In this document: positions 44,076-62,964 of the stretch, in pieces | Numbering within the stretch: position 1 is the stretch's first letter | Layout of the letters: each line of letters opens with the position of its first letter | Notes under the pieces: generated by a model | What the model was told of the DNA's origin: nothing | Databases searched by the model: none | What the model saw: only the letters and a program-made list of their open reading frames with translations | Translations under genes and position numbers: made by a program | Source of the DNA: an uncultured Candidatus Rokubacteria bacterium | GTDB taxonomy: Bacteria; Methylomirabilota; Methylomirabilia; Rokubacteriales; CSP1-6 | Length of the DNA: 64,000 bases | Assembly: GCA_963758635.1 (NCBI GenBank) | Contig: CAVWWD010000007.1 | Location: forward strand, 160,001-224,000 | Direction: 5' to 3'

Positions 44076-44810
44076 ATGTCACGCATGCCCGACCCGCCGC
44101 GGAGACCGCAAGACCTCACCCCGGAGCAGCTCGCCTTCTACGCCCAGGTCAGCGCCGACCAGGGCCATCGCACGCGCGTCTACGAGCACTACATCCCCAG
44201 GGAGACCGGCCACGCCTTTCCCGTGGACGCCGGGCAGGTGCTCCGGATCACGTGCACGGACGGCGGCCAGGTCGCGGACTTCAACGCGTTCTCGCGGACG
44301 GATCCCGCCGAGCACTTCTGGTCGGGACGGACGCGCACGCTCCAGGGCGCGCACCTGCGGGTGGGACAGCGTCTCTGGGGCACCGAGCCGCGGATGCGCC
44401 CGATGTTCACGTTCATCACCGACACCGTCCCGCACACCGCGCAGCCGTTCAACGCCGCGTCGCACGACCTCATCTACGCGCGGTGCAGCGAGCGGGCGCG
44501 GGCGATCCAGACGGGACTGCCCGACCAGCCGAACTGCAACACGAACCTGACGCGCGCGCTGAACGCGATCGGCTTTCCGGCCACCCACGTCCACGACGCC
44601 TTCAACGTCTTCATGACCACGGGCATCGACGAGCACCAGCGCCTCTTCTTCGTCCCGCCCGAGGCCCGGCAGGGCGACCACGTCGAGCTCTACGCGGAGA
44701 TCGACACGATCGTGGCGATCTCCTGCTGCCCGGGGGCGTGTAACGGCGAGCGCACGAAGGGGCTCGGCGTGGAGGTGTTCGCGCATCCCCACCGGCCGCG
44801 CCAGCCCTGA
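44076..44810 (+). CDS. DUF1989 / urea-carboxylase-associated family protein
   Basis: GGQVADFN, HDLIYARC, NCNTNL, FNVFM, ISCCP. Confidence 0.85.
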   Translation: MSRMPDPPRRPQDLTPEQLAFYAQVSADQGHRTRVYEHYIPRETGHAFPVDAGQVLRITCTDGGQVADFNAFSRTDPAEHFWSGRTRTLQGAHLRVGQRLWGTEPRMRPMFTFITDTVPHTAQPFNAASHDLIYARCSERARAIQTGLPDQPNCNTNLTRALNAIGFPATHVHDAFNVFMTTGIDEHQRLFFVPPEARQGDHVELYAEIDTIVAISCCPGACNGERTKGLGVEVFAHPHRPRQP

Positions 44811-45646
44811 TGGAGCGCGATCGCGCCGCCGGCGCCGACGCCAAGCTCGCCCTCCGCGAGATCACCCACGTCTTCGACGGGGCGGGCGGGCCGGTCACCG
44901 CCGTGGACGGCATCGACATCGACATCCCCGCCGGGAGCCTCGTCAGCCTGATCGGCCGATCGGGCTGCGGGAAGACGACGCTGTTCAACATCGTGGCCGG
45001 CCTGCTCCGGCCGACCCGGGGCCGCGTGCTCCTGGACGGCGAGGACATCAGCGGCCGCGCCGGGCTCGTCTCCTACATGCTCCAGAAGGACCTGCTGCTG
45101 CCGTGGCGCACCGTGCTCGACAACGTCGTGCTCGGCCTCGAGCTCGGAGGCATGCGGATCGCCGAGGCCCGGGAGCAGGCGCTGCCGCTGATCCGGCGGT
45201 ACGGGCTCGGGGGCTTCGAGCGCCAGTACCCCGCGGCCCTGTCCGGCGGCATGCGCCAGCGCGCGGCCCTGCTCCGCACCCTTCTGTGCGACCGCGACGT
45301 GATCCTGCTCGACGAGCCGTTCGGCGCCCTCGACGCGCAGACGCGCTTCAGCATGCAGGAGTGGCTGCTCGGCCTCTGGCAGGACTTCGGGCGCACCGTG
45401 GTGCTGGTGACCCACGACGTGGACGAGGCGGTGTTCCTCTCCGACGAGATCTTCGTGCTCTCGCCCCGCCCGGGCCGCGTGCGGGCCCGGCTGCCGGTGC
45501 CGCTGGCGCGCCCCCGGCCGCGCGGCATCGTGACCTCGCCGGAGTTCGCCCGGACGAAGGAGCGGTGCCTCGATCTCCTCTTCGAGGAGGAGCCGGCGGG
45601 CGCACCCGGGGGGACCGGCGCCCCGGAGCCGGCGGGCGCGCGATGA
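44810..45646 (+). CDS. ABC transporter ATP-binding protein (NitT/TauT type)
   Basis: GRSGCGKT, LSGGMRQR, LDEPFGALD. Confidence 0.95.
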   Translation: MERDRAAGADAKLALREITHVFDGAGGPVTAVDGIDIDIPAGSLVSLIGRSGCGKTTLFNIVAGLLRPTRGRVLLDGEDISGRAGLVSYMLQKDLLLPWRTVLDNVVLGLELGGMRIAEAREQALPLIRRYGLGGFERQYPAALSGGMRQRAALLRTLLCDRDVILLDEPFGALDAQTRFSMQEWLLGLWQDFGRTVVLVTHDVDEAVFLSDEIFVLSPRPGRVRARLPVPLARPRPRGIVTSPEFARTKERCLDLLFEEEPAGAPGGTGAPEPAGAR

Positions 45647-46521
45647 GCGAGGCGAACACCATCGCGCCGGGCGAGGCGGCGCCGGACGCGCGAGCGCCGG
45701 CGCGGCCGCGGCTGGCGCCGCCGCGCGGCATCGTGGTCCGGACGGAGCGCCGCTGGTCGACCCCGCGCGTCGTCGCCACCCAGCTCGCGATCCTCGTCCT
45801 CACGCTGGGGCTCTGGGAGCTGGGCGTGCGCGCCGGCCGGATCGATCCGTTCTTCTGGTCGCAGCCATCCGCCATCTGGCGGACGGCCATCGTCTTCGTG
45901 ACCCAGGGCAGCGCGCTCTACGACACGTGGTTCACGGTGAGCGCCACCCTGGTCGGCTTCCTGGTCGGCACCGTGGCGGGCGCGGCCATCGGGCTCTCCT
46001 TCTGGTGGTCGAGGAACGTCTCCGCCGTGCTCGAGCCGTTCGTCATCGTGTTCCACGCGGTGCCGAAGCTCGCCTTCGCCCCGCTGATCATCCTGCTCTT
46101 CGGCATCGGGATCAGCTCGAAGATCGCGCTGGCCATCGCGCTCACCATGGTCATCTCCATCCTCGCCGCCCACGGCGGCGTCAAGGCGCTGGACGACGAC
46201 CTCGTCCGGCTCATGTACACGCTGGGCGCGTCCCGGTGGCAGGTGTTCACCAAGGTCGTGATCCCGTCGTCGATGCCGTGGATCATCTCGTCCATGCGCA
46301 TCAACATCGGCATGGCGCTGGCCGGGACCATCGTGGGCGAGTTCGTCTCCTCGCAGCACGGCCTCGGCAAGCTCATCCTGTACGCGGGCTCCACCTACGA
46401 GATGGCGCTGATCTGGGTCGGCATCATCGTGCTGTCCGCGGTCGCCGTCGGCATGTACGCGGCGGTCATCCGGCTCGAGCGGGTGCTGCTCCGCGGCGTG
46501 CGCGCCCAGGTGAGCGAGTAG
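45643..46521 (+). CDS. ABC transporter permease (NitT/TauT type)
   Basis: VPKLAFAPL, LGASRWQVF, GTIVGEF. Confidence 0.92.
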   Translation: MSEANTIAPGEAAPDARAPARPRLAPPRGIVVRTERRWSTPRVVATQLAILVLTLGLWELGVRAGRIDPFFWSQPSAIWRTAIVFVTQGSALYDTWFTVSATLVGFLVGTVAGAAIGLSFWWSRNVSAVLEPFVIVFHAVPKLAFAPLIILLFGIGISSKIALAIALTMVISILAAHGGVKALDDDLVRLMYTLGASRWQVFTKVVIPSSMPWIISSMRINIGMALAGTIVGEFVSSQHGLGKLILYAGSTYEMALIWVGIIVLSAVAVGMYAAVIRLERVLLRGVRAQVSE

Positions 46522-46525
46522 CGCC

Positions 46526-48112
46526 GTGGCCGCGGGTCCTCCGGGCGTGACGCCGGCGGCCACGGGCGAGCAGATCGTCCGGGGCCGGCACGTGGTCTCG
46601 CGGGTCGCGCCGGACGGCCGCCCGGTGATCGTCGACGCGGGCGGCGTGCTGGTCCGCGACGGCGTGGTCGCGGAGGTGGCGGCGTTCGACGACCTGGCGC
46701 GCCGCCACCCGCGGGCCGCCGTGGTGGGCGCCGGGCGTGACGTGGTCGTGCCGGGCCTCGTGAACGCGCACCATCACACCGGCCTCACGCCCACCCAGCA
46801 CGGCATCCCCGACGCGCCGCTCGAGCTGTGGCTGCCGTCGTTCATGGGCATGCGCGCCGTCGATCCGTACCTGGACACGCTCCACTCGGCCATCGAGATG
46901 CTGGAGTCCGGCGTGACCACCGTCCAGCACATCCAGGGCGGCCCCATCGGGCCGCGCGGCGGCTGGATGTCCACCGCGGAGCGGATCGTGCGCGCCTACG
47001 AGGACGCCGGCATGCGCGTGAGCTACTGCTTCATGCTCCGCGACCGGAACCGCTTCGTGTACGGCGACGACGCCGCGTTCCTGGCCTCGCTGCCGCCCGC
47101 GCTCGCCGCCGAGCTGCGCGGCCTGCTCGCCGACCGCACCGCGCCCCTCGAGGAGTACGTGGGCTTCTTCGAGGAGCTGGCGGCCCGGTGGCACGACCCG
47201 CGCGGGCGCGTGTGCGTGCAGCTGGCGCCGGCCAACCTCCAGTGGTGCACCGACCGGGCGCTCGAGCTGCAGCGGGACGCCGCGCTCCGCCACGGCGTGG
47301 GGCTGCACATGCACCTGCTCGAGACCGCCTACCAGCGCGCGTTCTCCGGCAAGCACGACGGCCACTCCGCCGTCCGGCACCTCGAGCGTCTGGGGCTCCT
47401 CGGCCCGTCCATGACGATCGGCCACGGCATCTGGATGACCGCGGACGACGCGGACCTCGTGGCGGCCACCGGAACGATGGTGTGTCACAACGCGAGCTCG
47501 GGGCTCAGGCTCCAGAGCGGCATCGCTCCCGTCGCGGCGCTCCTCGACCGCGGGGTCAAGGTGGCGCTCGGGATCGACCAGGCGGGCATCAACGACGACC
47601 GCGACATGCTCCAGGAGATGCGGGTGGCCTGGTGCCTGCAGCGGGGGCCGGGGCACGACGCCGAGCCGCCCAGCGCGGCGACGGTGTTCCGCATGGCCAC
47701 CGAGTTCGGCGCCGCCACCACGGGCTTCGCCGATCGCATCGGCGTCCTCGAGCCCGGCCGCGCCGCCGACCTCGTGCTTCTCGACTGGGACGCCGTCGCC
47801 ACGCCGTACCTGGACGCGGAGACGCCGGTCCTCGACGCGCTCCTGCATCGGGCCAAGGCCTCCGCGGTGCGCACGTCCATGGTGGGCGGCCGCGTCGTGC
47901 TCCGCGACGGCCGGCCCGTCGGCGTGGACGCGGACGCGGTGAGGGGAGAGATCGCGCGCCAGCTCGCCGGCGGCCCCACCGCGGCCGAGCAGCGCCGGCG
48001 GGAGCTCGCGCGGAGCCTCGCCCCGCACGTGCGGGACTTCTACCGCGGCTGGCCGGTGCCCACCGCCACGCGCGGCTATCCGCGGTTCAACGACCCCGAG
48101 GACCGGCCATGA
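46526..48112 (+). CDS. Amidohydrolase (SAH deaminase/atrazine chlorohydrolase-like)
   Basis: PGLVNAHHH, HMHLLET, GHGIW, LGID. Confidence 0.88.
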   Translation: MAAGPPGVTPAATGEQIVRGRHVVSRVAPDGRPVIVDAGGVLVRDGVVAEVAAFDDLARRHPRAAVVGAGRDVVVPGLVNAHHHTGLTPTQHGIPDAPLELWLPSFMGMRAVDPYLDTLHSAIEMLESGVTTVQHIQGGPIGPRGGWMSTAERIVRAYEDAGMRVSYCFMLRDRNRFVYGDDAAFLASLPPALAAELRGLLADRTAPLEEYVGFFEELAARWHDPRGRVCVQLAPANLQWCTDRALELQRDAALRHGVGLHMHLLETAYQRAFSGKHDGHSAVRHLERLGLLGPSMTIGHGIWMTADDADLVAATGTMVCHNASSGLRLQSGIAPVAALLDRGVKVALGIDQAGINDDRDMLQEMRVAWCLQRGPGHDAEPPSAATVFRMATEFGAATTGFADRIGVLEPGRAADLVLLDWDAVATPYLDAETPVLDALLHRAKASAVRTSMVGGRVVLRDGRPVGVDADAVRGEIARQLAGGPTAAEQRRRELARSLAPHVRDFYRGWPVPTATRGYPRFNDPEDRP

Positions 48113-49356
48113 GCGACATCGCCGACCTCGTCCTCGCCGACGCCACGTTGCCGGACGGCACGCGGGGGTACGTGGCCGTCGCGGGCGAGCGCATCGCGAG
48201 CCTGGGCGCGGGCGCAATGCCCCCGGCGCGGCGGCGCATCGACCTCGGCGGGCGGCTCCTGATCCCGGCGCTCATCGACGGGCACCTCCACCTGGACAAG
48301 ACGCTGCTGGGCTTGCCGTGGCGACCCCACGCGGCCGCGGGCGACTCGACCCGCGACCGCATCGACGGCGAGAAGAAGATGCGGGCCGCGCTCGCCGGGC
48401 CCGTGGACGCCCGCGCCGGGGCGCTCCTGGCCCAGGCGCAGGGCCACGGCACGCTGGCGCTGCGCACCCACGTGGACATCGACGACGTGACGCGCGTGGC
48501 GAACCTCGAGCGGATCCTGGCCCTCAGGGAGAAGTGGGCCGGCGACGTGACCATCCAGGTGGTGGCGTTCCCGCAGAGCGGCATCCTGACGTGCCCCGGC
48601 GTCCGCGACCTCCTCGAGGAGTCGCTGCGGCTCGGCGCGGACCTGGTGGGCGGCCTCGACCCGCTCGGGATCGACGGGAACCTGGACGGCCACCTCGACG
48701 TGGTGTTCGGTCTCGCCACGCGCTTCGGGCGCGGAGTGGACATCCATCTGCACGACGGCGGCGAGGCCGGGCTCGGCGAGATCCTCGCCATCGCGGAGCG
48801 CACCCGGCAGAGCGGGCTCGGCGGCCGTGTCACGGTCAGCCACGCCTTCGCCCTGGGCTCGGTGCCCCCGGACGCGGCGGCGCGGGCCGCCGAGCGGCTG
48901 GCCGCCGCCGGCGTGTCGATCCTCACGAGCGCGCCGGGCAGCGCCGCCATGCCGCCGGTGCGGGTGCTGCGGAGCGCGGGCGTCACCGTCTTCGCGGGAT
49001 CGGACAACGTGCGCGACGCCTGGTCGCCCTTCGGCAACGCGAACATGCTCGAGCGCTGCATGCTGGTCGCCTATCGCTCCGGGTTCCGGACCGATCCCGA
49101 CCTGGCCTCGACCCTGGACCTGGCCACCAGCGCCGCCGCCTCGGTGCTCGGCCTCGCCGACCATGGCCTCCGGCCCGGGGCGCACGCCGATCTGCTCGTG
49201 CTCGGCGCCTCGTCGCTGCCCCAGGCCATCGTCGAGCGGCCGTCGCCCGACATCGTGATGCGCCGCGGGCGCATCGTGCGCGAACAGGCGGTCGGCCTCG
49301 CCGGCGCGGCGACCGCCCCTATCCGCAGCCCCTCACCCTCGGGAGGCACTCCATGA
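48109..49356 (+). CDS. Cytosine/creatinine deaminase-like amidohydrolase
   Basis: DGHLHLDK, RTHVD, VAFPQ, DIHLHD, SHA, GSDNVRD. Confidence 0.88.
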   Translation: MSDIADLVLADATLPDGTRGYVAVAGERIASLGAGAMPPARRRIDLGGRLLIPALIDGHLHLDKTLLGLPWRPHAAAGDSTRDRIDGEKKMRAALAGPVDARAGALLAQAQGHGTLALRTHVDIDDVTRVANLERILALREKWAGDVTIQVVAFPQSGILTCPGVRDLLEESLRLGADLVGGLDPLGIDGNLDGHLDVVFGLATRFGRGVDIHLHDGGEAGLGEILAIAERTRQSGLGGRVTVSHAFALGSVPPDAAARAAERLAAAGVSILTSAPGSAAMPPVRVLRSAGVTVFAGSDNVRDAWSPFGNANMLERCMLVAYRSGFRTDPDLASTLDLATSAAASVLGLADHGLRPGAHADLLVLGASSLPQAIVERPSPDIVMRRGRIVREQAVGLAGAATAPIRSPSPSGGTP

Positions 49357-50351
49357 AGCGCAGCATCGCCCTCGCCGTGCTGGTCGCCACCGTCGTGCTC
49401 GCGTTCGCCGGGACCGTGCCCGCGCCGGCGCCGGCCCAGCAACTGCGGCCGTTCGTGGTCACGGAGCCCGTCCACTCGCTCGACAGCGTCCCGTTCTACC
49501 TGGCCGTCCGGAAGGGCTTCTTCAAGGAGCTCGGGCTCGACGTCAAGCTCGTGACCTCGGAAGGCGGCGGGCGGCACATCGCCGCGGTCATCTCGGGGGA
49601 CGCCAACGCCTTCATCGGCGGGCCCGAGCACATCGCCTTCGCGCGGGTGAAGGGCGGCAAGGAGCTGCGCGCGGTGGTGAGCATGTCCAACCGCGCCAGC
49701 CAGTACTTCGTGGCCGGCAAGTCGGTGACGATCAACGACAAGGCCTCGGCGGGCGAGAAGCTCCGCGGCAAGCGCATCGCCATCGGGACGCGAGGCGGCA
49801 CCGGCTACTCGATCGTGCGCTTCCTCCTGGCCCAGGACGGGATCGACCCGACCAAGGACGTGGTGCTGGTCGAGATCCCGACCGCGGCGGGCCGCATGGC
49901 CGCCATCCGCGCCGGGCAGGCCGACGTGGCGATGATCAACGAGCCGCTGATCTCCCAGGGCATGAAGGCCGGCCTCTGGAACCAGCCGTTCATGAGCATG
50001 CCCGCCGAGCTCGGGCCCTTCGTCTACACGACCATCAACCTGCCGCTGGACCTCATCCAGAAGGATCCGGCCATGGTGGCGGGGATGGTCAAGGCCATGG
50101 TGAAGGCCCTCGACTACACGTTCGCCCACCCCGAGGAGGCCGAGGCGGTGGCCCGCGCCGAGTTCCCCACGCTGCCCGTGGAGGACGTGAAGGCCGTCCT
50201 CAAGCGCGCGCTGGACGACAAGCTGTGGGAGCGGAACGGGTCGATGCCGAAGGAGGCGTGGGCCCGCCTGCACGAGATCGTCCGCAAGGGCGGGCTCCTC
50301 GAGCGCGACGTGGCGTACGAGGAGGTCTTCGAGCCGAAGTTCCTGCGGTAG
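49353..50351 (+). CDS. ABC transporter substrate-binding protein (NMT1/SsuA-like)
   Basis: Signal peptide; PFYLAVRKGFFKELGLDV. Confidence 0.88.
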   Translation: MKRSIALAVLVATVVLAFAGTVPAPAPAQQLRPFVVTEPVHSLDSVPFYLAVRKGFFKELGLDVKLVTSEGGGRHIAAVISGDANAFIGGPEHIAFARVKGGKELRAVVSMSNRASQYFVAGKSVTINDKASAGEKLRGKRIAIGTRGGTGYSIVRFLLAQDGIDPTKDVVLVEIPTAAGRMAAIRAGQADVAMINEPLISQGMKAGLWNQPFMSMPAELGPFVYTTINLPLDLIQKDPAMVAGMVKAMVKALDYTFAHPEEAEAVARAEFPTLPVEDVKAVLKRALDDKLWERNGSMPKEAWARLHEIVRKGGLLERDVAYEEVFEPKFLR

Positions 50352-50367
50352 CCTCCGATGAGCGCTG

Positions 50368-51802
50368 ATGGACCCCGGGCCCGGCCCGCCCGCGCGGGCC
50401 GACGTGATCGTGACCGGTCACGTGATCACGATGGATCCGCGCCGCACCGTCCGGCCCGACGGCGCCGTCGTCGTCCGCGACGGTGACATCGTGGACGTCG
50501 GCGATCGCGCCGCGATGCTCGCGCGTCACCGGCCGGACCGGCTGATCGACCGGCCCGGCGCCATCGTGCTGCCCGGCCTGATCGACGCGCACACGCACAT
50601 GACGCAGGCCCTCGTGCGCGGCCTCATCGCCGAGGAGCTGCCGATGATCCTGCGGCTCTACGTCCCCGCGTCGCGCGCGATGACGCCGGCGGAGGCGGGC
50701 ACCGCCACCACGCTGTGCTCGGCCCAGCTCCTGAGCTCGGGCGTGACCACGGCGTGTGAAGGCGCGGGGGCCAGCAACCCCGAGCAGCTCGCCGCGCAGC
50801 TCGAGGCCATCGAGGCGGTGGGCATCCGGGTGAACGTCGTGCGCGGCGCGCCCGACCAGGACTTCCACCACGCGGCGCTCTACTCGCAGGTGAACGGAGA
50901 CCTCCTGGCGGAAGGTCCGCGAAGGGGACGCCGAGCGGGACCTGGCCGTCACCGAAGACCTCCTGCGGCGCTATCCGCCGAAGGGACGCGGCCGGATCAC
51001 CGCGGGCATCAACGCTTCCGCGCTCACCGGCTACTCACCGCGCTACTTCGAGCTGTCCCGGGCGCTCGCGGCGCGCCACGCGGCCAAGGTGCACGTGCAC
51101 GCCGCGCGCGACCGCGAGGAGGTGGAGTTCTGCCTGGCCGTGGCGGGCCGGCGGCCCATCGAGTGGCTCGAAGACCTCGGCATGCTCGGGCCGGACCTCG
51201 TGCTGGCGCACGCCATGCTCGCGACCGAGGGCGAGATCCGCGCGATCGGCCAGACGCGGACCGGCGTCGCCCACTCCGCCGTCGAGTGCGTGAACATCCT
51301 GAGCGCCGTTCCGAACGTGAAGATGATGCGCGCGCTCGGCGCCACCGTCGCCCTCGGCTGCGACAACGCCGTCAACGACATGTTCGTCGTCATGCACACG
51401 GCGTGGGTGCTGCACGCGGCCACCCGCGGCATCGCCGCCTACGATCCCGAGATCCTCGACGCCGAGACGATCCTGGCCATGGCCACCATCGACGGCGCGC
51501 GGCTGCTCGGGCTCGACCACGTGGTCGGCTCGCTGGAGCCCGGCAAGGCCGCGGACCTGACGGTCCTGGACGGGCGGAGCCTCTTCCTCCACCCGCCCCA
51601 GCACCTCGTGAGCGAGATCGTCCGCTACGGGTCACGGGCGGACGTCCGCCTGGTGATGGTCGGCGGCCGGACCGTCGTGGAGGACGGCGTGGTCACCACG
51701 ATCGACCGCGCGCGCCTCGGCGAGGACGCCGAGCGCGGGGCCCGCCGCCTCCGCGCGATCGTCGAGCCCCGCCGCTACCGGCCCCTCCATCCTCCGGCCT
51801 GA
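50368..51802 (+). CDS. Amidohydrolase (SAH deaminase-like), frameshift near 50900
   Basis: PGLIDAHTH; then HVHAA, LAHA, LGCD, GSLEPGKAADL in the next frame. Confidence 0.85.
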
Positions 51803-51822
51803 CTCCCCCAGCGAGCCCGGGG

Positions 51823-51879
51823 TTGACAGTGCGGGTCCCGGTTTAGTATCAGTTAACTCACGTTAAGCCATCACTTAAC
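51823..51879 (+). promoter_or_regulatory. Promoter/operator of the hcr-box operon
   Basis: TTGACA at 51823; AT-rich block with TTAAC-tcac-GTTAA and GTTAAG-ccatca-CTTAAC inverted repeats. Confidence 0.6.
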
Positions 51880-51944: not shown

Positions 51945-52460
51945 GTGAAGGCGCGGTTCACCTTGTCGGTCAACGGCGAAGGGCGCGAGCTGGTGGTCGC
52001 CGTGCACAAGACCCTGCTCGAGGTCCTCCGCGAGGATCTCGACCTCACCGGCACCAAGCACGGCTGCGAGCTCGGCGAGTGCGGCACCTGCACGGTGCTC
52101 CTGGACGGCGAGCCCGCGCTCTCGTGCCTCGTGCTTCCCGTCGAGTGCCAGGGCCGCGAGGTGACCACGATCGAGGGGATGGCGGTGGACGGGCGCCTGC
52201 ACCCCCTCCAGCAGGCGTTCGCGGAGCTCGGCGCCGCCCAGTGCGGATACTGCATCCCGGGCATCCTGCTGACCGCCCGCGCGCTGCTCGCCGAGAACCC
52301 CACGCCCACCCGCGACGAGGTGCGCCACGCGCTGGCCGGCAACCTGTGCCGGTGCACCGGCTACACGAAGATCCTCGAGGCCGTCGAGCTCGCGGCGCTG
52401 CGGATGCAGGCCGGTGATGGCGCGGCGGCCGCGGCGTCCACCCGGGAGGCGCGGGCGTGA
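51945..52460 (+). CDS. hcrC: 2Fe-2S subunit, 4-hydroxybenzoyl-CoA reductase gamma-like
   Basis: GTKHGCELGECGTC, QCGYC, GNLCRCTGY. Confidence 0.75.
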   Translation: MKARFTLSVNGEGRELVVAVHKTLLEVLREDLDLTGTKHGCELGECGTCTVLLDGEPALSCLVLPVECQGREVTTIEGMAVDGRLHPLQQAFAELGAAQCGYCIPGILLTARALLAENPTPTRDEVRHALAGNLCRCTGYTKILEAVELAALRMQAGDGAAAAASTREARA

Positions 52461-54868
52461 GCGAGAAGGAGCGGTTCTCCGTCGTCGGCAAGAGCCTGCC
52501 GAAGATCGACGCGTGGGCCAAGGTCACGGGCCAGACGCGCTTCGCGGACGACATGACGCTGCCCCGCATGGCCCACGGCAAGCTCCTCCGGAGCCCGCAC
52601 GCGCACGCCCGCATCGTCAGGATCGACACGACGCGCGCCCGGAGCCTGCCCGGCGTGTACGCCGTGATCACCGGCCGCGACCTGCCGCCGGTCAAGTTCG
52701 GCATCCTGCCCGTCTCCCAGGACGAGGAGGCGCTCTGCGTCGAGAAGGTGCGGATGGTCGGTGACGCGGTGGCCGCGGTGGCCGCGGTGGACGAGGAGAC
52801 GGCGGAGCGCGCCGCCGAGATGATCGAGGTGGAGTACGAGCCGCTGCGCGCGCTCATGTCCATCGAGGACTCGCTGGCCCATCCCGAGGTGCGAATCCAC
52901 GAGTACGGCGACGGGCCGAACGTGCACAAGGCGGTCTCGCTCCAGTTCGGCGACGTGGAGGCCGCCCTCGCCGGCGCCCACCTCGTGCGCGAGGACGTGT
53001 TCTTCTTCGAGGGGAACACGCACCTGCCGATGGAGCAGCATTCCGCGGTGGCCCACTGGGGGCCGGACGACAAGCTGACGCTCTGGTCCTCCACGCAGAC
53101 GCCGCACTACGTGCACCGCCTGCTCGGCAAGATCCTGGACGTGCCGCAGGCGCACATCCGGGTGATCGCGGCGCCGGTGGGCGGCGGCTTCGGCGGGAAG
53201 CTGGACCCGTTCTCCCACGAGATCGCCGCGTGCAAGCTCTCCCAGCTCACCGGCCGCCCGGTGAAGATCACGCTGACCCGCGAGGAGGTGTTCTACGTCC
53301 ACCGCGGCCGGCACCCCGTGCTGATGTGGATCCGCACGGGCTTCGCGCGGGACGGCGCCATCACCGGGATGCACTTCCGCTCCTGGCTCGACGGCGGCGC
53401 CTACGGCTCGTACGGCGTGGCCTCCACCTTCTACACGGGCGCGCTCCAGACGGTGACGTACAAGATCCCCGCCTACAAGTTCGAGGGCGCCCGCGTGTTC
53501 ACGAACAAGCCGCCGTGCGGTCCCAAGCGCGGCCACGGCACGCCCCAGCCCCGCTTCGCCATGGAGTGCCAGATCGACAAGGCCGCCGAGCAGCTCGGGC
53601 TCGACCCCGCGGACATGCGGCGGCGGAACCTCGCCGAGCCCTTCACCAAGACGGCCAACCACCTCACCGTGACCACGATCGGGCTCGGCGAGTGCATCGA
53701 CCGCGTGGTGGAGGCGAGCGGCTGGCGCGAGAAGCGCGCGTCGCTGCCGCCCGGGCGGGGGATCGGCATCGCGTGCTCGTCGTACCTCACCGGCGCGGGC
53801 ACCGCGATCTACTGGAACGACATGCCGCACTCCGGCGTGGTGGTGCGCGCGGACCGGAGCGGCGGCGTGTCCGTGCTGTGCGGGGCCACCGACATCGGCC
53901 AGGGCTCGGACTCGATCCTGGCGTACCTCGCGGCCGAGGTGCTCGGCATCGAGCCCAAGGACATCCGCGTGCACGCGGCGGACACCGACCTCACCCCGGT
54001 GGACCTCGGCTCCTACTCCTCCCGGGTCACGCTCATGGCGGGCCAGGCCGTCATCCAGGCCGCGGAGCGGCTGCGCGCGCGGATCTTCGAGGCGGTGGCC
54101 CGGAAGCTCGAGGCGCCGGCGAGCGCGCTCGTCGCCCGCGACCGGCGCGTGTTCGTGGCCGACGACCCGGAGCGCGGCGTGTCCTTCCCGGACGCCGTCG
54201 TCCTGGGCGAGAGCATGCACGGCGTGCTCGCCGTCCCGGGCTCCTACGCGCCGCCGAAGCGGGCGGGCAAGTACAAGGGCGGCGGGGTCGGCCCGTCGCC
54301 GTGCTATTCGTACACCGCGTGCGTGGTCGAGGTGAACGTGGACCGGGAGACCGGCGAGGTCCGGCCCACCGAGGTGTGGATCGCCCACGACGTGGGCCGC
54401 GCGCTGAATCCGCTGCTCGTCGAGGGACAGGTCGAGGGATCGGTCTACATGGGCCTGGGCGAGGTGCTGATGGAGGAGCAGGTGTTCAGGAAGGGCGTCC
54501 ACAAGATCCCCTCGCTCCTCGAGTACAAGAGCCCGACCACGCTCGAGACGCCGGAGATCCACACGATCCTCGTCGAGACCGACGACCCCGAGGGCCCGTT
54601 CGGCGCGAAGGAGGCGGGCCAGGGGCCGCTCCTTCCGATCATTCCCGCGGTCGTCAACGCCGTCTACGACGCGGTGGGGGTGCGCATGGACGAGATCCCG
54701 GTCTCGCCCGACAAGGTGCTGAAGGGCCTCGAGCTGGCCCGCCAGGGCAAGCCGGCGCGCGTGGGGCCGGAGCGCCTGCCGCTCCTCACGTTCCCCGCGC
54801 CGCGCGCCGTCGAGTCGGCGTTCGGCCAGCCCGCCGAGAACATCGCGGAGAGGCCGTTTTCGACATGA
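52457..54868 (+). CDS. hcrA: Molybdopterin subunit, 4-hydroxybenzoyl-CoA reductase alpha-like
   Basis: FGILP, HRGR, TNKPPCGPKRGHG, DIGQGS, GSYSSRVT, GPFGAKEA; xanthine oxidase family, HcrA-type by recalled motifs. Confidence 0.72.
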   Translation: MSEKERFSVVGKSLPKIDAWAKVTGQTRFADDMTLPRMAHGKLLRSPHAHARIVRIDTTRARSLPGVYAVITGRDLPPVKFGILPVSQDEEALCVEKVRMVGDAVAAVAAVDEETAERAAEMIEVEYEPLRALMSIEDSLAHPEVRIHEYGDGPNVHKAVSLQFGDVEAALAGAHLVREDVFFFEGNTHLPMEQHSAVAHWGPDDKLTLWSSTQTPHYVHRLLGKILDVPQAHIRVIAAPVGGGFGGKLDPFSHEIAACKLSQLTGRPVKITLTREEVFYVHRGRHPVLMWIRTGFARDGAITGMHFRSWLDGGAYGSYGVASTFYTGALQTVTYKIPAYKFEGARVFTNKPPCGPKRGHGTPQPRFAMECQIDKAAEQLGLDPADMRRRNLAEPFTKTANHLTVTTIGLGECIDRVVEASGWREKRASLPPGRGIGIACSSYLTGAGTAIYWNDMPHSGVVVRADRSGGVSVLCGATDIGQGSDSILAYLAAEVLGIEPKDIRVHAADTDLTPVDLGSYSSRVTLMAGQAVIQAAERLRARIFEAVARKLEAPASALVARDRRVFVADDPERGVSFPDAVVLGESMHGVLAVPGSYAPPKRAGKYKGGGVGPSPCYSYTACVVEVNVDRETGEVRPTEVWIAHDVGRALNPLLVEGQVEGSVYMGLGEVLMEEQVFRKGVHKIPSLLEYKSPTTLETPEIHTILVETDDPEGPFGAKEAGQGPLLPIIPAVVNAVYDAVGVRMDEIPVSPDKVLKGLELARQGKPARVGPERLPLLTFPAPRAVESAFGQPAENIAERPFST

Positions 54869-55899
54869 TGCGCCTGCCGCCCTTCGAGTACCTGGCGCCG
54901 GTGTCGGTGGCCGACGCCGCCAAGCTCATGGCCGAGCGCGGCCCCGCGGCCATGCTGGTGGCGGGCGGCACCGACCTCTATCCGAACATGAAGCGCCGGC
55001 AGTTCGAGCCCGAGGCGCTGGTCGGGCTCCGCGGCATCCGCGAGCTCGCCGGCGTGCGCGGCACCGCGGCTTCCGGCCTCACGATCGGCTCGGGCGCCAC
55101 GCTCACCGCGGTGGCGCGCCACGCGGAGGTCGCCGGCGGATACCCGGCGCTGGCCACCGCGGCGGGGCTGGTGTCCACGCCGCAGCTTCGCAACTCGGGC
55201 ACGATCGGCGGGAACGTCTGCGTCGACACGCGGTGCAACTACTACAACCAGTCCTACCAGTGGCGGAAGGCCGTGAACTTCTGCATGAAGAAGGACGGCG
55301 AGATCTGCCTGGTCGCCCCGGGGAGCCCGCGCTGCTGGGCGGTGTCGTCGTCGGACACCGCGCCCGTGCTGTGGAGCCTGGGGGCGACGGTGACGCTGGT
55401 GGGGCCCGCCGGCGAGCGCGAGATCCCGATCGCCGCGCTCTATCGCGACGACGGCATCGCGTACCTGGCCAAGCGGCCCGACGAGATCCTCACCGAGATC
55501 GCGCTGCCGCCCGCCGACGGACTCCGGTCGGCCTACCTGAAGCTCCGGCGCCGCGGCTCGTTCGACTTCCCCGTGCTGGGCGTGGCGGTGGCGCTGACGA
55601 TGGACGGCGCCACGGTCGCGCGCGGGCGCATCGTGCTGGGCGCGGTGGCCTCGCTGCCGCGCGAAGCCTCCGACGCGGCCGAGATGCTGGCCGGCCAGCG
55701 GCTCACCCCCGACCTGATCGACCGCGTGGCGGCCCGCGCGGCGCGCCCGTCGAAGCCGCTCGACAACACCGACCTCACGCATCCGTACCGGAAGAAGATG
55801 ACGCGCGTGTTCGTGGCCCGCGCGCTGCGCCGCCTCGCCGGGCTGTCCGAGCAGGCGTCCGGCTTCGGCGTGGAGCCCACGGGGCAGGAGCTCGCGTGA
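54865..55899 (+). CDS. hcrB: FAD subunit, 4-hydroxybenzoyl-CoA reductase beta-like
   Basis: AGGTDL, TIGGN, Cys-rich insert DTRCNYYNQS...CMKKDGEIC...RCWA typical of the HcrB [4Fe-4S] loop. Confidence 0.75.
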   Translation: MMRLPPFEYLAPVSVADAAKLMAERGPAAMLVAGGTDLYPNMKRRQFEPEALVGLRGIRELAGVRGTAASGLTIGSGATLTAVARHAEVAGGYPALATAAGLVSTPQLRNSGTIGGNVCVDTRCNYYNQSYQWRKAVNFCMKKDGEICLVAPGSPRCWAVSSSDTAPVLWSLGATVTLVGPAGEREIPIAALYRDDGIAYLAKRPDEILTEIALPPADGLRSAYLKLRRRGSFDFPVLGVAVALTMDGATVARGRIVLGAVASLPREASDAAEMLAGQRLTPDLIDRVAARAARPSKPLDNTDLTHPYRKKMTRVFVARALRRLAGLSEQASGFGVEPTGQELA

Positions 55900-56444
55900 T
55901 CACGCTGGGCCAGCGGATCAAGACCCTCCGCGCCGAGCGCGCGCTCCAGCAGCGGCAGCTCGCCGAGAAGGCCGGGCTCACGCCGAGCATGCTGTCCCAG
56001 ATCGAGTCCGGCCGGCTCACGCCCTCGCTCCACACGCTGGGAAAGCTCGCCGGCGCGCTCGGCATCTCGATCGGCTCGCTCTTCGAGGCGACGCCCAACG
56101 GCCGGCTCCACGTCACCCGCAAGGCGGACTACCCGGTGGTGTCCTTCGACGGGAGCCCCGAGCGGTGGGCCGTGCTGGGGGCCGGCCTCTTCCAGGGCAA
56201 GATCCGCGCGGTGGTCTCGACCCTCCCCGCGCACACGCGAGGGGTGAAGACCGAGAAGGTCGTCATCGAGCCCGGGCAGATGAAGCTCTTCTACGTGATC
56301 GAGGGTAAGGTGGGCCTGCACTACAACGGCGAGGTCCACACGCTCGCGGCGGGGGACAGCGCCTACCTGGACGGCGGGGCCACGCACAACTGGGAGAACC
56401 TCGGCGCCCGGCCGGCGAAGGCTCTCTGGGTCATCCTCGGCTAA
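55896..56444 (+). CDS. XRE-family HTH regulator with cupin domain
   Basis: LAEKAGLTPSMLSQIESG; C-terminal cupin LAAGDSAY...HNWEN. Confidence 0.88.
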   Translation: MITLGQRIKTLRAERALQQRQLAEKAGLTPSMLSQIESGRLTPSLHTLGKLAGALGISIGSLFEATPNGRLHVTRKADYPVVSFDGSPERWAVLGAGLFQGKIRAVVSTLPAHTRGVKTEKVVIEPGQMKLFYVIEGKVGLHYNGEVHTLAAGDSAYLDGGATHNWENLGARPAKALWVILG

Positions 56445-56477
56445 CCCGCGCTGCACCCAGGAGCGGCAGGAGAGGAC

Positions 56478-58154
56478 ATGGCTGAGACCGGCGGCGACGC
56501 AGACGATCGTGGACTTCCGGACCGAGCCGTCGCGCTACCGTCACTGGAAGCTCTCGGTCGACGGGCGCGTGGCCACCCTGGCCATGGACGTGCGCGAGGA
56601 CGGGGGTCTCCGCCCCGGGTACGAGCTCAAGCTCAACTCGTACGACCTGGGCGTGGACATCGAGCTGCACGACGCCTTGCTGCGTCTTCGCTTCGAGCAT
56701 CCCGAGGTGGGCGCGGTCGTGATCTCCTCGGGCAAGGACCGCGTGTTCTGCGCGGGCGCGAACATCCGGATGCTGAACCAGTCCGCCCACGGCTTCAAGG
56801 TGAACTTCTGCAAGTTCACCAACGAGACGCGGAACGCCCTCGAGGAGGCCACCGCCGAGTCGCGCCAGGCCTACATCTGCGCGGTCAACGGGCCGTGCGC
56901 GGGAGGCGGGTACGAGCTGGCGCTGGCCTGCGACTGGATCGTGATGGCCGACGACGGCAACACGTCGGTGTCGCTGCCCGAGGTGCCGCTCCTCGCCGTG
57001 CTGCCCGGCACCGGCGGGCTCACCCGCCTGGTGGACAAGCGCCGGGTCCGGCGCGACCGCGCCGACGTGTTCTGCACGCTGGAGGAGGGGATCAAGGGCA
57101 AGCGCGCGGTCGAGTGGGGCCTGGTGGACGAGGTGGTGCCGCGATCCCGCCTGGAGGAGACGGTGAAGCGCCGGGCCGCGGAGCGCGTGGCGCAGAGCGA
57201 CCGGCCGGCCGCCGGACCGGGCGTGGCCCTCACGCCGCTCGCCCGCGACATCCAGGGCGACCGCATCGCGTACCGACACGTGACGTGCGCGATCCAGCGC
57301 GAGCGCGGCGTGGCCGAGATCACCGTGAGCGGGCCCACCGACGCGCCGCCCGCCGATCCGGCCGCGGCGCAGGCGATCGGCGACGCGTTCTGGCCGCTCG
57401 CCCTGGCCCGCGAGCTGGACGATCTCGTGCTCCACCTCCGGACCAACGAGGTGGAGGTCGGCCTCTGGGTGCTCCGGACGACCGGCCGGGCCGACCTCGT
57501 CGAGGCCCACGACCGCTTCCTGGCCGCCCACGAGTCGCACTGGCTCGCGCGCGAGATCCGGCTCTACCTCAAGCGTGTGCTCAAGCGCGTGGACGTGTCG
57601 TCCCGCACGGTGTTCGCGCTGATCGAGCCCGGCTCGTGCTTCGTGGGCACGCTGCTCGAGCTGGCCCTCGCCGCCGACCGTTCCTACATGCTCGACGGCA
57701 CGCGCCCGGAGGACGAGGCGCCCGCGGCCACCGTGCGCCTCACCGACGCGAACTTCGGCGCGTACCCCATGGTGAACGGGCTCACGCGTCTGGCGAGCCG
57801 CTTCCTGGGCGAGCCGGGACGGGTCGACGACCTGAAGGGCCGCCTCGGCCGCGACCTCGACGCCGCGGCGGCCGCCGAGGCGGGCCTCGTCACGTTCACG
57901 CCCGACGACATCGACTGGGAGGACGAGGTGCGCATCGCCATCGAGGAGCGGGCGGCGTTCTCCCCGGACGCGCTGACCGGCATGGAGGCGTCGCTCCGGT
58001 TCGCGGGGCCGGAGACCGTGGAGAGCAAGATCTTCGCCCGCCTCACCGCGTGGCAGAACTGGATCTTCCAGCGTCCCAACGCGGTGGGCCCGAAGGGCGC
58101 GCTCGCCGTGTACGGGACGGGCCAGCGCACCGAGTTCGACCGGAGGAGAGTGTG

Positions 58155-58155
<1 letters not shown>
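56478..58155 (+). CDS. boxC: 2,3-epoxybenzoyl-CoA dihydrolase (likely start 56478 with a frameshift near 56500; open frame from 56509)
   Basis: LKLNSYDLGVDIEL, KVNFCKFTNETRN, LTAWQNWIFQRPNAVG. Confidence 0.93.
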
Positions 58156-59573
<1,418 letters not shown>

Positions 59574-59615
59574 GGCCGCGCCGGCGGCGCGCGCCGGGAA
59601 GAGGAGGGGCCGACG

Positions 59616-61169
59616 ATGACGGGATCGCCGTTCGTGGCGCCGCAAGACTTCAACGTCGCCTCGTTCTTCGTGGACCGGCCCGTGGCCGAGGGGCGCGGCG
59701 GGCGCCCGGCATTCCTCTACGAGGACACGGCGCTGACGTATGGGCAGCTGCAGGAGCTGGTGAATCGAACCGGCAACGCGCTGCGCGAGCTCGGCGTCGA
59801 GCGGGAGCAGCGCGTGCTCCTCCTCCTCCTCGACACGCCCGAGTTCCTCGGCGCGTTCTGGGGCGCCATCAAGATCGGCGCCATCCCGGTTCCCCTCAAC
59901 ACGATGCTGCGCCCGCCGGACTACCTCTACTTCATGAACGACAGCCGGGCCGGCGTGCTCGTGGTGTCGGAGGCCTTGCTGCCGTCGGTGGAGCCGGTGC
60001 TGGGACAGGCGCGCCATCTCCGGCGGGTCGTCGTGGCGGGCAAGGCGCCCGCGCCCCACATGGCCTTCGACGCCGTCGTGGGGCGCGCGTCCTCGCGGCT
60101 CGATGCCGTCGACACCTCGAAGGACGACGCCGCGTTCTGGCTCTACTCGTCGGGATCGACCGGCTTCCCGAAGGGCGCCGTGCACCTGCACCACGACATG
60201 GTGGTGTGCACGGACAGCTACGCCCTCCAGGTGCTGGGCATGACCGAGGCCGATCGCACGCTCTCCGCGGCCAAGCTCTACTTCGCGTACGGGATGGGCA
60301 ACACCATGTACTTCCCCATGCGCGTGGGCGGGCAGGGCGTGCTCCATCCGCACCGGCCGCTGCCCGAGACCATGTTCGAGCTGATCCACCGGCACCGGCC
60401 CACGATCTTCTTCGGCGTGCCCACGCTCTACGCGTCGATGCTCCAGGTGAAGGAGGCCGAGAAGCGCTACGACCTGTCCTCGCTGCGCCTGTGCGTGTCG
60501 GCGGGCGAGGCGCTGCCGGAGGAGCTCTACCGGCGGTGGCGCGAGCGCTTCGGCGTCGAGGTGCTGGACGGGATCGGGACCACGGAGATCCTCCACATCT
60601 TCCTCTCGAACCGTCCCGGGCGCGTCCGGGCCGGCGCCTCCGGCGAGGTGGTGCCGGGCTACGAGGCGGTCGTGGTCGACGACGCGGGCGGCCCGATGCC
60701 GCACGGGGAGATCGGCAACCTGCGCGTGAAGGGCGACTCGATCATGGCCTACTACTGGAACCAGCACGAGAAGACCAAGAACACGCTGCACGGCCACTGG
60801 ATCGAGACCGGCGACAAGTACTACCAGGACGCCGACGGCTACTTCTTCTACTGCGGGCGCGGGGACGACATGCTGAAGGTGGGCGGCATCTGGGTATCGC
60901 CCGTCGAGGTCGAGGCCGCCCTGGTCGCGCATCCCGCCGTGCTCGAGGCGGCGGTGGTCGGGCGCGAGGACGAGGAGCGCCTGGTCAAGCCCCAGGCCTT
61001 CGTGGTCCTGAAGGACGGCTACACCGGCTCGCCGGCGCTGGACGCGGAGATCAAGGGCTTCGTGAAGGACCGCATCGCGCCCTACAAGTATCCTCGCTGG
61101 ATCGAGTTCGTGGCCGACCTGCCGAAGACCGCCACCGGGAAGATCCAGCGCTTCAAGCTCCGAGCATGA
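59616..61169 (+). CDS. Benzoate-CoA ligase family protein
   Basis: FWLYSSGSTGFPKG, AAKLYFAYGMGN, DGIGTTE, PKTATGKIQR. Confidence 0.92.
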   Translation: MTGSPFVAPQDFNVASFFVDRPVAEGRGGRPAFLYEDTALTYGQLQELVNRTGNALRELGVEREQRVLLLLLDTPEFLGAFWGAIKIGAIPVPLNTMLRPPDYLYFMNDSRAGVLVVSEALLPSVEPVLGQARHLRRVVVAGKAPAPHMAFDAVVGRASSRLDAVDTSKDDAAFWLYSSGSTGFPKGAVHLHHDMVVCTDSYALQVLGMTEADRTLSAAKLYFAYGMGNTMYFPMRVGGQGVLHPHRPLPETMFELIHRHRPTIFFGVPTLYASMLQVKEAEKRYDLSSLRLCVSAGEALPEELYRRWRERFGVEVLDGIGTTEILHIFLSNRPGRVRAGASGEVVPGYEAVVVDDAGGPMPHGEIGNLRVKGDSIMAYYWNQHEKTKNTLHGHWIETGDKYYQDADGYFFYCGRGDDMLKVGGIWVSPVEVEAALVAHPAVLEAAVVGREDEERLVKPQAFVVLKDGYTGSPALDAEIKGFVKDRIAPYKYPRWIEFVADLPKTATGKIQRFKLRA

Positions 61170-62458
61170 CCCCGGCGGATCCGAGCGCGCTCGAGACGCT
61201 CGACCGGGAGGCGCTGCGCGCGCATCAATGGGCGCGGGTCGCCGCGCTCGCCGCCGCGGTGATGCCCGCGAACCCGTTCCTCGCCTCCCGGTGGCGGGCG
61301 GCGGGGCTGGCGGCGGCGGGCGACCTCGCGGGCTGGGACGACTTCCAGCGCCTGCCGTTCATGCTGAAGGCCGATCTCGTGGAGGACCAGGCCGTCCATC
61401 CGCCGTTCGGCTCCGACCTCACGTATCCGCTCGACCGCTACGTGCGCGTGCACCAAACGTCGGGGACGTCGGGCGCGCCGCTCCGCTGGCTCGACACCGC
61501 GGAGTCGTGGGAGTGGTGGCTCCGGTGCTGGGGCGCGGTGTGGCGGGGGGCCGGCGTCGGTCCCGGGCAGCGCGTGTTCTTTCCGTTCTCGTTCGGGCTC
61601 TTCGTTGGCTTCTGGGCCGGCTTCGAGAGCGCCCGCGCCCTCGGCGCCCTCGCCATTCCCGGCGGCGGCCAGGACTCCGTGCAGCGGCTGGCCACCATCC
61701 AGGCGCTCGGCGTCACCGCGGTGGCCTGCACGCCGTCCTATGCGCTCCACCTGGCCGAGGTCGCGCGCGAGCGCGGCATGGACCTCACGAAGCTCGGCGT
61801 CACCACCACCGTGCACGCCGGCGAGCCCGGCGCGGGCATCCCCGCGGTGCGGGCGCGCATCGAGGAGGCGTGGGGCGCCCGCGCCTACGACCACGCGGGC
61901 ATGACGGAGATGGGCGCCTACGGGTTCGAGTGCGCGGCCCGGGAGGGTCTGCACGTCAACGAGGCCGAGTTCGTGGCCGAGATCGTCGATCCGGCCACGG
62001 GTGCCGCCGCGCGCGAAGGCGAGCTGGTGCTGACGAACCTGGGCCGGCTGGGCTCGCCGGCGGCGCGCTACCGCACCGGCGATCGGGTCCGAGCGGCGGA
62101 CGGGCGGTGCGGGTGCGGCCGCACGTTCATGCGGCTCGAGGGCGGCATTCTCGGCCGCGTCGACGACATGCTGGTCGTGCGCGGCGTGAACGTCTTCCCG
62201 TCGGCGCTCGAGGGCATCGTCCGGCGCTTCCCCGGCGTGGACGAGTTCCAGATCGAGGTGCACCGGCCGCAGGCCATGGACGAGCTTCGCCTCCTCGTCG
62301 AGGTCGGCGCCGGCGAGCCCGCGCCCGTCGTCCACGCCATCCGGGAGGCGCTCAAGGTCGAGCTCGGCATCCGCGTGGACGTGGTCGCGGCGCCCATCCG
62401 GAGCCTCCCGCGCTACGAGCTGAAGGCGCGGCGCGTCGTCCGCCGCGCTCGCGCCTGA
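61166..62458 (+). CDS. Phenylacetate-CoA ligase family protein
   Basis: HQTSGTSG, TPSYALHL, GMTE, RYRTGD, GRVDDM...RGVNVFP. Confidence 0.88.
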   Translation: MTPADPSALETLDREALRAHQWARVAALAAAVMPANPFLASRWRAAGLAAAGDLAGWDDFQRLPFMLKADLVEDQAVHPPFGSDLTYPLDRYVRVHQTSGTSGAPLRWLDTAESWEWWLRCWGAVWRGAGVGPGQRVFFPFSFGLFVGFWAGFESARALGALAIPGGGQDSVQRLATIQALGVTAVACTPSYALHLAEVARERGMDLTKLGVTTTVHAGEPGAGIPAVRARIEEAWGARAYDHAGMTEMGAYGFECAAREGLHVNEAEFVAEIVDPATGAAAREGELVLTNLGRLGSPAARYRTGDRVRAADGRCGCGRTFMRLEGGILGRVDDMLVVRGVNVFPSALEGIVRRFPGVDEFQIEVHRPQAMDELRLLVEVGAGEPAPVVHAIREALKVELGIRVDVVAAPIRSLPRYELKARRVVRRARA

Positions 62459-62525
62459 GTCGCCCGACTCCGCCTCCCGCCGCCCCGCGCGCGCTCGCCG
62501 CGCGCTGCTCGGTTCGCTCGCCGGG

Positions 62526-62964
62526 CTACTGTCCGACGATGTCGCGCTTCATCCCGCCGAGCGCGGCCAGGAGCTCGCTCTTCTCCTGCGCGGGCACCTT
62601 GAACTTGTCCAGGCTCTTCACGAGGTCCTCGACGAGCGCGCCGAACTCCGCGTCGGTGATCTTCATGCCCGCGTGGGCGCTCTTCATGTTCTGGCCGGTG
62701 TACTTGCACGGGCCCGCCCGACGCCTCGCAGATCTGGTCCACGAGCATCGTCTTGAGCCGCGGGACGTTGGCGCTCGCGAAGCGCTGGTTGATGCGCGTG
62801 TCCGCGGCCACGTTGCCGATGAAGTCGTCGACCACCGCCTGGATGGCCGGCTTGCCGCCGAGCCGGTCGTAGAGCGGCTTCTTCTCGGCCATCCCGCCGC
62901 CCGCGCATCCCGCCGCGAGCCATCCCACTGCCATCACCGTCGCCACCGCCTTGCGCCAGCCCAT
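62526..62964 (-). CDS. Group I truncated haemoglobin with lipoprotein signal, frameshift near 62712
   Basis: LAAGC lipobox; [25 protein letters not shown], then [14 protein letters not shown]...DIVGQ* in the shifted frame. Confidence 0.85.

Follow-up and report, generated by a model that had tools for sequence, protein, structure and literature searches.

The window analysed here is a stretch of 64,000 nucleotides from the genome of an uncultured Candidatus Rokubacteria bacterium of the order Rokubacteriales (assembly GCA_963758635.1, contig CAVWWD010000007.1, positions 160,001 to 224,000). At 51945-62458 it contains an operon of eight genes, all on the + strand. These encode three subunits of a molybdenum (Mo) enzyme resembling 4-hydroxybenzoyl-coenzyme A (CoA) reductase (Hcr, also 4-HBCR or HBCR), an XRE-cupin regulator, BoxC and BoxB, a benzoate-CoA ligase (ligase 1), and a PaaK-family CoA ligase (ligase 2). 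The gaps at the seven junctions are -4, -4, -4, +64, -1, +42, and -4, with overlaps at five of them, which bears out the preliminary description of eight co-oriented and mostly overlapping genes. The features are as follows.

51823..51878, + strand: promoter/operator-like element, TTGACA followed by repeated TT(A/C/T)A-N7-(T/C)(T/G)AA palindromes across the likely -10 box
51945..52460, + strand: HcrC-like 2x[2Fe-2S] subunit; top match TIGR03193, 190 bits against a cut-off of 258; Fer2 and Fer2_2 domains
52457..54868, + strand: HcrA-like Mo-cofactor subunit of the glutamine (Gln) clade; top PDB match 1RM6_A, E 3e-188; TIGR03194 864 against 995
54865..55899, + strand: HcrB-like FAD subunit with a [4Fe-4S] insertion (C124, C140, C148, C157); TIGR03195 310 against 405; aligns with 1RM6_B
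55896..56444, + strand: XRE helix-turn-helix and cupin regulator, not BoxR/BzdR; HTH_3 and Cupin_2 domains
56509..58155, + strand: boxC (dihydrolase); TIGR03222 916 against a cut-off of 712
58155..59573, + strand: boxB, di-iron benzoyl-CoA 2,3-epoxidase; TIGR03225 860 against 499; PDB 3PER, E 3e-235
59616..61169, + strand: ligase 1, benzoate-CoA ligase with a BadA/BCL-type pocket; TIGR02262 692 against 375; top PDB match 2V7B
61166..62458, + strand: ligase 2, PaaK-family CoA ligase, 46 kDa; TIGR02155 197 against 646

The operon is confirmed as a real, order-wide arrangement. The analysis covered 61 genomes of the order, one of them the window's own (34 of the 61 are at least 90% complete); boxB exceeds its cut-off in 47. 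An hcrA-like gene lies less than 6 kb upstream of boxB on the same strand in 34 of these 47 and on another contig in 3; 10 have no hcrA-like match of at least 700 bits, several of them at contig ends. The unpublished genomes G009 and G023 are included in the order tallies, both among these 10, and no conclusion depends on them. Because it recurs in 34 of the 47 boxB genomes, the Hcr-like/Box linkage goes far beyond chance juxtaposition, even though related genomes are not independent, and a juxtaposition unique to this genome is ruled out. The other possibility considered earlier, a boxA gene elsewhere in the genome, is rejected on the genome and order searches, with boxA over its cut-off in 0 of 61 genomes. 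In the window's genome, the boxA model scores best on a P450-BM3-like gene, at its reductase end. BoxD is found in none of the 61 genomes at E<=1e-60 (best tblastn match in the window's genome, 28%), and neither true hcrA over the TIGR03194 cut-off nor true bcrB over its cut-off occurs in any; a weaker BcrB-like match is present in 24 of the 61, with none in the window's genome. The lack of boxA and of a benzoyl-CoA reductase noted earlier for the window extends genome-wide: searches of the genome, which is 87% complete, yielded neither boxA nor bcrB, and no BoxR orthologue either. Divergent clusters resembling class I benzoyl-CoA reductase, under the cut-off and with a dienoyl-CoA-hydratase-like gene nearby, occur in about one-third of the order's genomes (L138-L143; e.g., G052:C14 and G022:C2).

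The composition of the locus varies among relatives. The loci of family f4 carry the PaaK-family ligase only, with ligase 1 homologues elsewhere in five of five such genomes. One locus, L085, contains the hcrCAB-like genes, the regulator, and the PaaK-family ligase, with the box genes absent, and three loci (L083, L084, and L089) feature a divergent BoxB-like protein in place of BoxB. This di-iron protein of 370 amino acids (∼35% identical; TIGR03225, 237 bits) was observed in L083:8445-9563, L084, and L088-L094, and in some Rokubacteriales it replaces boxCB behind the Mo enzyme together with a single-domain crotonase, a nitroreductase, or aldehyde dehydrogenases. A Rid-family gene lies just 3' of boxB or its divergent relative in nine loci and is not found in this window.

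The xanthine-oxidase-family Mo, FAD, and 2x[2Fe-2S] subunits are all present according to domain, NCBIfam, and PDB matches, and the Thauera 4-HBCR is the nearest solved enzyme for both large subunits (1RM6). As in HcrCAB of Thauera aromatica (PDB 1RM6/1SB3; TIGR03193-5), whose counterpart in Rhodopseudomonas palustris we take to be HbaBCD, three xanthine-oxidase-family subunits are combined with a four-cysteine insertion in the beta subunit. This [4Fe-4S] loop could be aligned across 1RM6_B, and all 51 of the 51 orthologues aligned share its four cysteines. The loop is presumably not exclusive to Hcr, PaoB carrying a similar cluster. The Mo subunit keeps Q214, Y326, H360, and W453 of Thauera HcrA and is 40 to 44% identical to HcrA sequences above the cut-off. 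It differs from the Thauera enzyme by E726Q, R248K, and M357K (Gln722, Lys248, and Lys357 in the alignment at the positions of Glu726, Arg248, and Met357), by its placement in a separate clade, and by being encoded with an O2-dependent epoxidase in a genome in which no benzoyl-CoA reductase was found. All 20 orthologue loci that were fetched have the glutamine, and the glutamate and Arg248 are retained in 9 of 9 HcrA sequences above the cut-off. Lys357 is no simple compensation for the glutamine, since it is also found in branches that retain the glutamate; the glutamate-retaining sister branches of the Gln clade bear automatic labels only.

A FastTree phylogeny built from 126 sequences, in which above-cut-off matches stand in for Thauera HcrA itself, recovers one group (support, 0.996) that contains the Gln clade and the HcrA clade as distinct lineages (1.0 each); two further glutamine-bearing sequences branch outside the Gln clade. 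The phylogenetic check proposed in the preliminary description places the Mo subunit outside the HcrA clade and inside the shared group. Judged from its sequence, the enzyme is a relative of Hcr in a sister clade to HcrA and not Hcr proper. Of the original characterization as HcrCAB plus BoxB/BoxC without boxA, the conserved Hcr-like/Box operon stands and the equation with Hcr does not. Glu-to-Gln mutants of this Mo enzyme family are regarded as inactive, and a literature search for them returned nothing relevant. A pattern search for the glutamine motif in 150 genomes from the phylum of G099 detected none apart from G099. An AlphaFold2 model of the Mo subunit computed without an alignment was discarded for its predicted local distance difference test score of 35. 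The window's genome also contains a second xanthine-oxidase-family Mo subunit with the glutamate retained (C5:242224-245781), directly followed by another PaaK-like ligase, and a PaaA-like di-iron gene at C5:261151.

BoxB, BoxC, and the benzoate-CoA ligase, each over its cut-off, are shared with the Box pathway of Azoarcus (Aromatoleum) evansii (BoxABCD, BoxR; 3PER). In contrast to that pathway, no BoxA, BoxD, or BoxR was found in the window's genome, an XRE-cupin regulator is present instead, and the Mo enzyme and a second ligase are joined to the operon. The BoxB residues E122, E152, H155, D213, E242, and H245, which we take to be the iron ligands, are invariant in 51 of 51 orthologues, and most of the closest named relatives of this BoxB (81 to 85% identical) bear the label Rokubacteria or Methylomirabilota. 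The pocket motifs FAY and LHIF of ligase 1 match BadA and BCL. BadA-type ligases favour ortho- over para-substituted substrates (PMC8388817), so para-substituted acids would be disfavoured by ligase 1. Ligase 2 shows 2-hydroxyisobutyryl-CoA synthetase as its top PDB match, with PaaK next; a true PaaK is ruled out by the TIGR02155 score of 197 against 646. This ligase stays beside the hcrCAB-like genes and the regulator where boxBC or ligase 1 is missing from the locus, and a PaaK-family ligase is the sole ligase in six fetched loci and is kept in L085, which lacks boxBC. With 46 kDa it is near the size of the 48-kDa 4-hydroxybenzoate ligase of Thauera, which also accepts 4-aminobenzoate (PMC8388817, Table 1), size being weak evidence. 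Ligase 2 may be the enzyme that activates the substrate for the Mo enzyme.

The promoter pattern is present in 19 of 19 regions 5' of hcrC orthologues, in 0 of 38,000 shuffles, and at a single site in the genome; it was built post hoc from inspection of the same upstream regions. A generic promoter and terminator scan did not call the element at 51823-51878 or any promoter and gave terminators at chance level only. The palindromes are a probable candidate site for binding of the XRE-cupin regulator, which is retained in the operons of relatives. Comparison with six relatives suggests that the real start of boxC is probably an ATG at 56478, one base off frame in the assembly. Apparent single-base frameshifts were seen here (56478-56509), in an upstream amidohydrolase lying in two frames (50368-51846), and in a convergent downstream gene (62413-62964) whose product resembles, by eye, a truncated globin. 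They are likely assembly errors, because other genes of the assembly, such as the KorA-like and P450-like genes, are split too. The region 5' of the operon (44076-51846) holds a DUF1989-like gene (by eye), an ATP-binding cassette transporter, and three amidohydrolases, all co-oriented with the operon; this run was not found upstream of the operon in relatives and is probably a separate unit. Four rhizosphere metatranscriptome runs from one study share sampled words at 0.27, 0.13, 0.12, and 0.12, which supports no conclusion on expression or habitat.

The Gln clade occurs beside benzoyl-CoA pathways in three arrangements. Besides the Rokubacteriales operon, a betaproteobacterial box cluster is organized as boxB-boxC-boxR / flavodoxin-bclA-TetR-hcrCAB-like with a true boxD (687 against a cut-off of 444), and genome G081 shows one co-oriented run of bcrC-B-A-D-like genes, bclA, hcrCAB-like genes, and a thioesterase-like gene. 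Adjacency to both O2-using and O2-free sinks argues that the step of the Mo enzyme lies upstream of benzoyl-CoA. Whole-genome searches for the lineages of metagenome loci were done on related metagenome-assembled genomes. Among described systems, the cluster of the cultured Sedimenticola selenatireducens CUZ is given as boxB and boxC, with boxA not named in the available text, and its Box proteins peak on benzoate plus O2 (PMC4453571). Bins of SAR324 encode a ligase, boxB, and boxC without boxD, some with a separately annotated 4-hydroxybenzoyl-CoA reductase (PMC4782131). In contrast to the operon described here, the available portions of these two sources report no Hcr-like enzyme in the box operon and no glutamine variant. 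Hcr-like proteins of Desulfatiglans anilini, induced by 4-aminobenzoate, are proposed to deaminate 4-aminobenzoyl-CoA (PMC7500099), and the urolithin dehydroxylase Ucd, an HBCR relative, dehydroxylates urolithin C (PMC11760930). Both may serve by analogy as precedents for other substrates among HBCR relatives; Ucd differs from the window's enzyme in having a glutamate (E741) and no [4Fe-4S] loop.

The nearest solved relative, the grouping with HcrA, the conserved linkage to benzoyl-CoA pathways, and the accompanying PaaK-family ligase favour, with reasonable though not high confidence, a peripheral funnel in which the Mo enzyme acts as an aroyl-CoA reductase yielding benzoyl-CoA for BoxB and BoxC. 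Ligase 2 would activate a substituted benzoate, most likely 4-hydroxybenzoate and possibly 4-aminobenzoate or another. The Mo enzyme would then remove the substituent with electrons from reduced ferredoxin delivered through the [4Fe-4S] loop, as in Hcr. Benzoate itself would enter via ligase 1. BoxB is expected from the literature on its family to epoxidize benzoyl-CoA with O2, and BoxC to open the ring. An unlinked donor of the ferredoxin or flavodoxin type may reduce BoxB, and a general dehydrogenase may oxidize the BoxC aldehyde, as must also happen in other boxA-less genomes. The genome encodes a heme-copper oxidase and a bd oxidase, and narG was not found in it. It also has, in keeping with the funnel, a KorA-like 2-oxoacid:ferredoxin oxidoreductase gene, split into three pieces in the assembly. 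Of the earlier proposal, the funnel into Box is thus kept as the likeliest function, and 4-hydroxybenzoyl-CoA as the substrate is likely but not established given the separate clade and the glutamine. Taken on their own, a funnel with 4-hydroxybenzoyl-CoA is a tentative assignment, and a funnel acting on another ring substituent is a somewhat doubtful one.

Several observations weigh against such a funnel. All three subunits have Hcr models as their top NCBIfam matches and yet remain under the cut-offs (190/258, 864/995, and 310/405). The catalytic glutamate is replaced by glutamine in 119 of the best 120 of at least 7,998 homologous sequence clusters at E<=1e-100, the remaining one lacking the motif. 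This glutamate is called essential in the family (PMC11760930 and PMC10420851) and activates the Mo-OH nucleophile during hydroxylation (PMC10420851). Because the glutamine sits where true HcrA keeps the glutamate, Hcr chemistry cannot be assumed. The 4-HBCR is described as oxygen sensitive (bioRxiv 2025.01.17.632430), a poor fit to co-transcription with an oxygenase. Of 80 Gln-clade loci from metagenomes, many of them on short contigs, just 9 have box genes nearby, and unrelated neighbours are found at many Gln-clade loci. The bcr-like genes of G081 are under their cut-offs, and boxBC also occurs elsewhere in that genome (L049). The co-occurrence with boxB that speaks for the funnel, with the glutamine motif in 48 of 65 genomes with boxB and 2 of 16 without in a sample of 81 genomes of one betaproteobacterial family, including the unpublished G311, is confounded by kinship and genome completeness. 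Finally, pobA, the aerobic 4-hydroxybenzoate hydroxylase gene, exceeds its cut-off in 1 of the 61 order genomes, a rarity that favours the funnel, but this one genome is that of the window, where its two copies would make a 4-hydroxybenzoate route via Hcr redundant. These lie at C2:97349-98512 and C11:53861-55024 with near-identical N-termini and unrelated surroundings and are possibly recent acquisitions.

The preliminary description had also offered the Mo complex as a replacement for BoxA, and this proposal did not hold up. Here, the Mo enzyme would replace BoxA, and perhaps BoxD, by taking electrons at Mo or FAD from the BoxC aldehyde or another donor, which is thereby oxidized, and passing them to BoxB. 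The failure to find boxA or boxD in any of the 61 order genomes, the co-orientation of the Mo enzyme with boxCB in 34 of 47, and the merely transient contact between BoxA and BoxB (PMC4498308) would agree with it. However, among 80 boxB loci across GTDB, boxA is adjacent in 35 and an hcrA-like gene in 6, all 6 with a BoxB at least 78% identical to the window's; a further 38 loci that lack an adjacent boxA come from genomes with no boxA match anywhere (35), with boxA on another contig (2), or with a weak match (1). This genome-wide search was positive in 12 of 12 controls. The genomes of the same 38 loci show no Hcr-like match at E<=1e-170 in 26 cases, true HcrA in 8, and the glutamine enzyme in 1. 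BoxA-less boxBC is therefore the usual condition outside the Betaproteobacteria and gets by without an Hcr-like enzyme, and a missing boxA gives no reason to invoke the Mo enzyme. In the betaproteobacterial family, the glutamine enzyme is equally common in boxB genomes with boxA (17 of 23) and without it (31 of 42; Fisher p=1.0), and it adjoins a true boxD in the cluster described above. In the BoxB tree, a single derived branch holds every boxA-adjacent sequence (support, 0.94, or 0.56 when a myxobacterial sequence is included), with the window's BoxB among boxA-less lineages, so the Rokubacteria need not have lost boxA. The survey, the betaproteobacterial counts, and this tree lead to rejection of a scenario in which Rokubacteria lost boxA and recruited Hcr. 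The loss of the glutamate also speaks against ordinary aldehyde hydroxylation, and replacement of BoxA is considered quite improbable. A redox loop free of BoxA and BoxD, in which the Gln-clade enzyme would oxidize the ring-opened CoA-aldehyde of BoxC at an active site devoid of the glutamate and its iron-sulfur/FAD wire would feed BoxB, allowing O2-dependent ring opening without NADPH cost, is judged highly improbable.

Three further explanations rival the funnel. Arene oxides rearrange to phenols, and the Mo enzyme might act in repair, returning hydroxybenzoyl-CoA from rearranged 2,3-epoxybenzoyl-CoA, or the epoxide itself, to benzoyl-CoA. Repair would account for the nearly constant company of a BoxB-family enzyme (48 of 50 Gln-motif genomes in the betaproteobacterial family) and for a linkage that persists when BoxB is swapped for its 370-amino-acid relative in L083, L084, and L089; in the Paa pathway, a related route, control of the epoxide is important (PMC4498308). 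It is nonetheless unlikely, as most other boxBC genomes do without the Mo enzyme (the 26 of 38 above) and the dedicated second ligase and the bcr-like context of G081 are left unexplained. An oxidative enzyme upstream of benzoate, acting on an aromatic aldehyde or the side chain of an arylacetyl-CoA with the product entering through the ligases, would match the mostly oxidative members of the xanthine oxidase family (bioRxiv 2025.01.17.632430), the aldehyde oxidoreductase PaoB among the matches of the FAD subunit, and the true paaK and indolepyruvate-oxidoreductase genes near some Gln-clade loci (L129). This reading is distinctly unlikely: the glutamate that activates the Mo-OH nucleophile is missing, reductase activity is what the nearest characterized relative has, and the clade groups with HcrA in the tree. 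The Mo enzyme might also be a passenger that became fixed next to boxCB at an early point in the order without a common pathway, for which the unrelated neighbours at many Gln-clade loci speak. Overlapping stop/start junctions, a single conserved promoter, and independent cases, in two other lineages, of a linkage with box or bcr genes make this the most remote of the readings.

Regarding electron donors, loci of the betaproteobacterial family of G101 (L225-L234 and L244-L263) have a MioC-type flavodoxin between boxR and bclA whenever there is a second BoxB paralogue. The flavodoxin is present in 10 of 10 loci of one set and 12 of 19 boxB loci of another (L249 is cut off), is not present in six betaproteobacterial loci with boxB and boxA only, and often has a gene for an ApbE flavin transferase as its neighbour. 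This flavodoxin is a candidate for a donor independent of BoxA. Eight genomes, G062-G098, several labelled Alphaproteobacteria, encode a true glutamate-type HcrA and unlinked boxBC; a canonical route from Hcr to Box may also exist in these, if bcr is absent there.

No publication describing the operon or the Gln clade was found in a search that reached few subscription papers and no supplements. Gln-clade proteins are publicly labelled 4-hydroxybenzoyl-CoA reductase and would be taken as markers of anaerobic phenol degradation, at odds with the loss of the glutamate and with an oxygenase neighbour in genomes without a canonical benzoyl-CoA reductase. The operon offers this clade a short list of candidate substrates and a partner ligase. 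The survey points to a restriction of BoxA to one derived BoxB branch, so that most BoxB enzymes would draw on some other usual donor. If the funnel is true, Hcr-type reduction would take place beside O2 chemistry and at a Mo site free of the glutamate.

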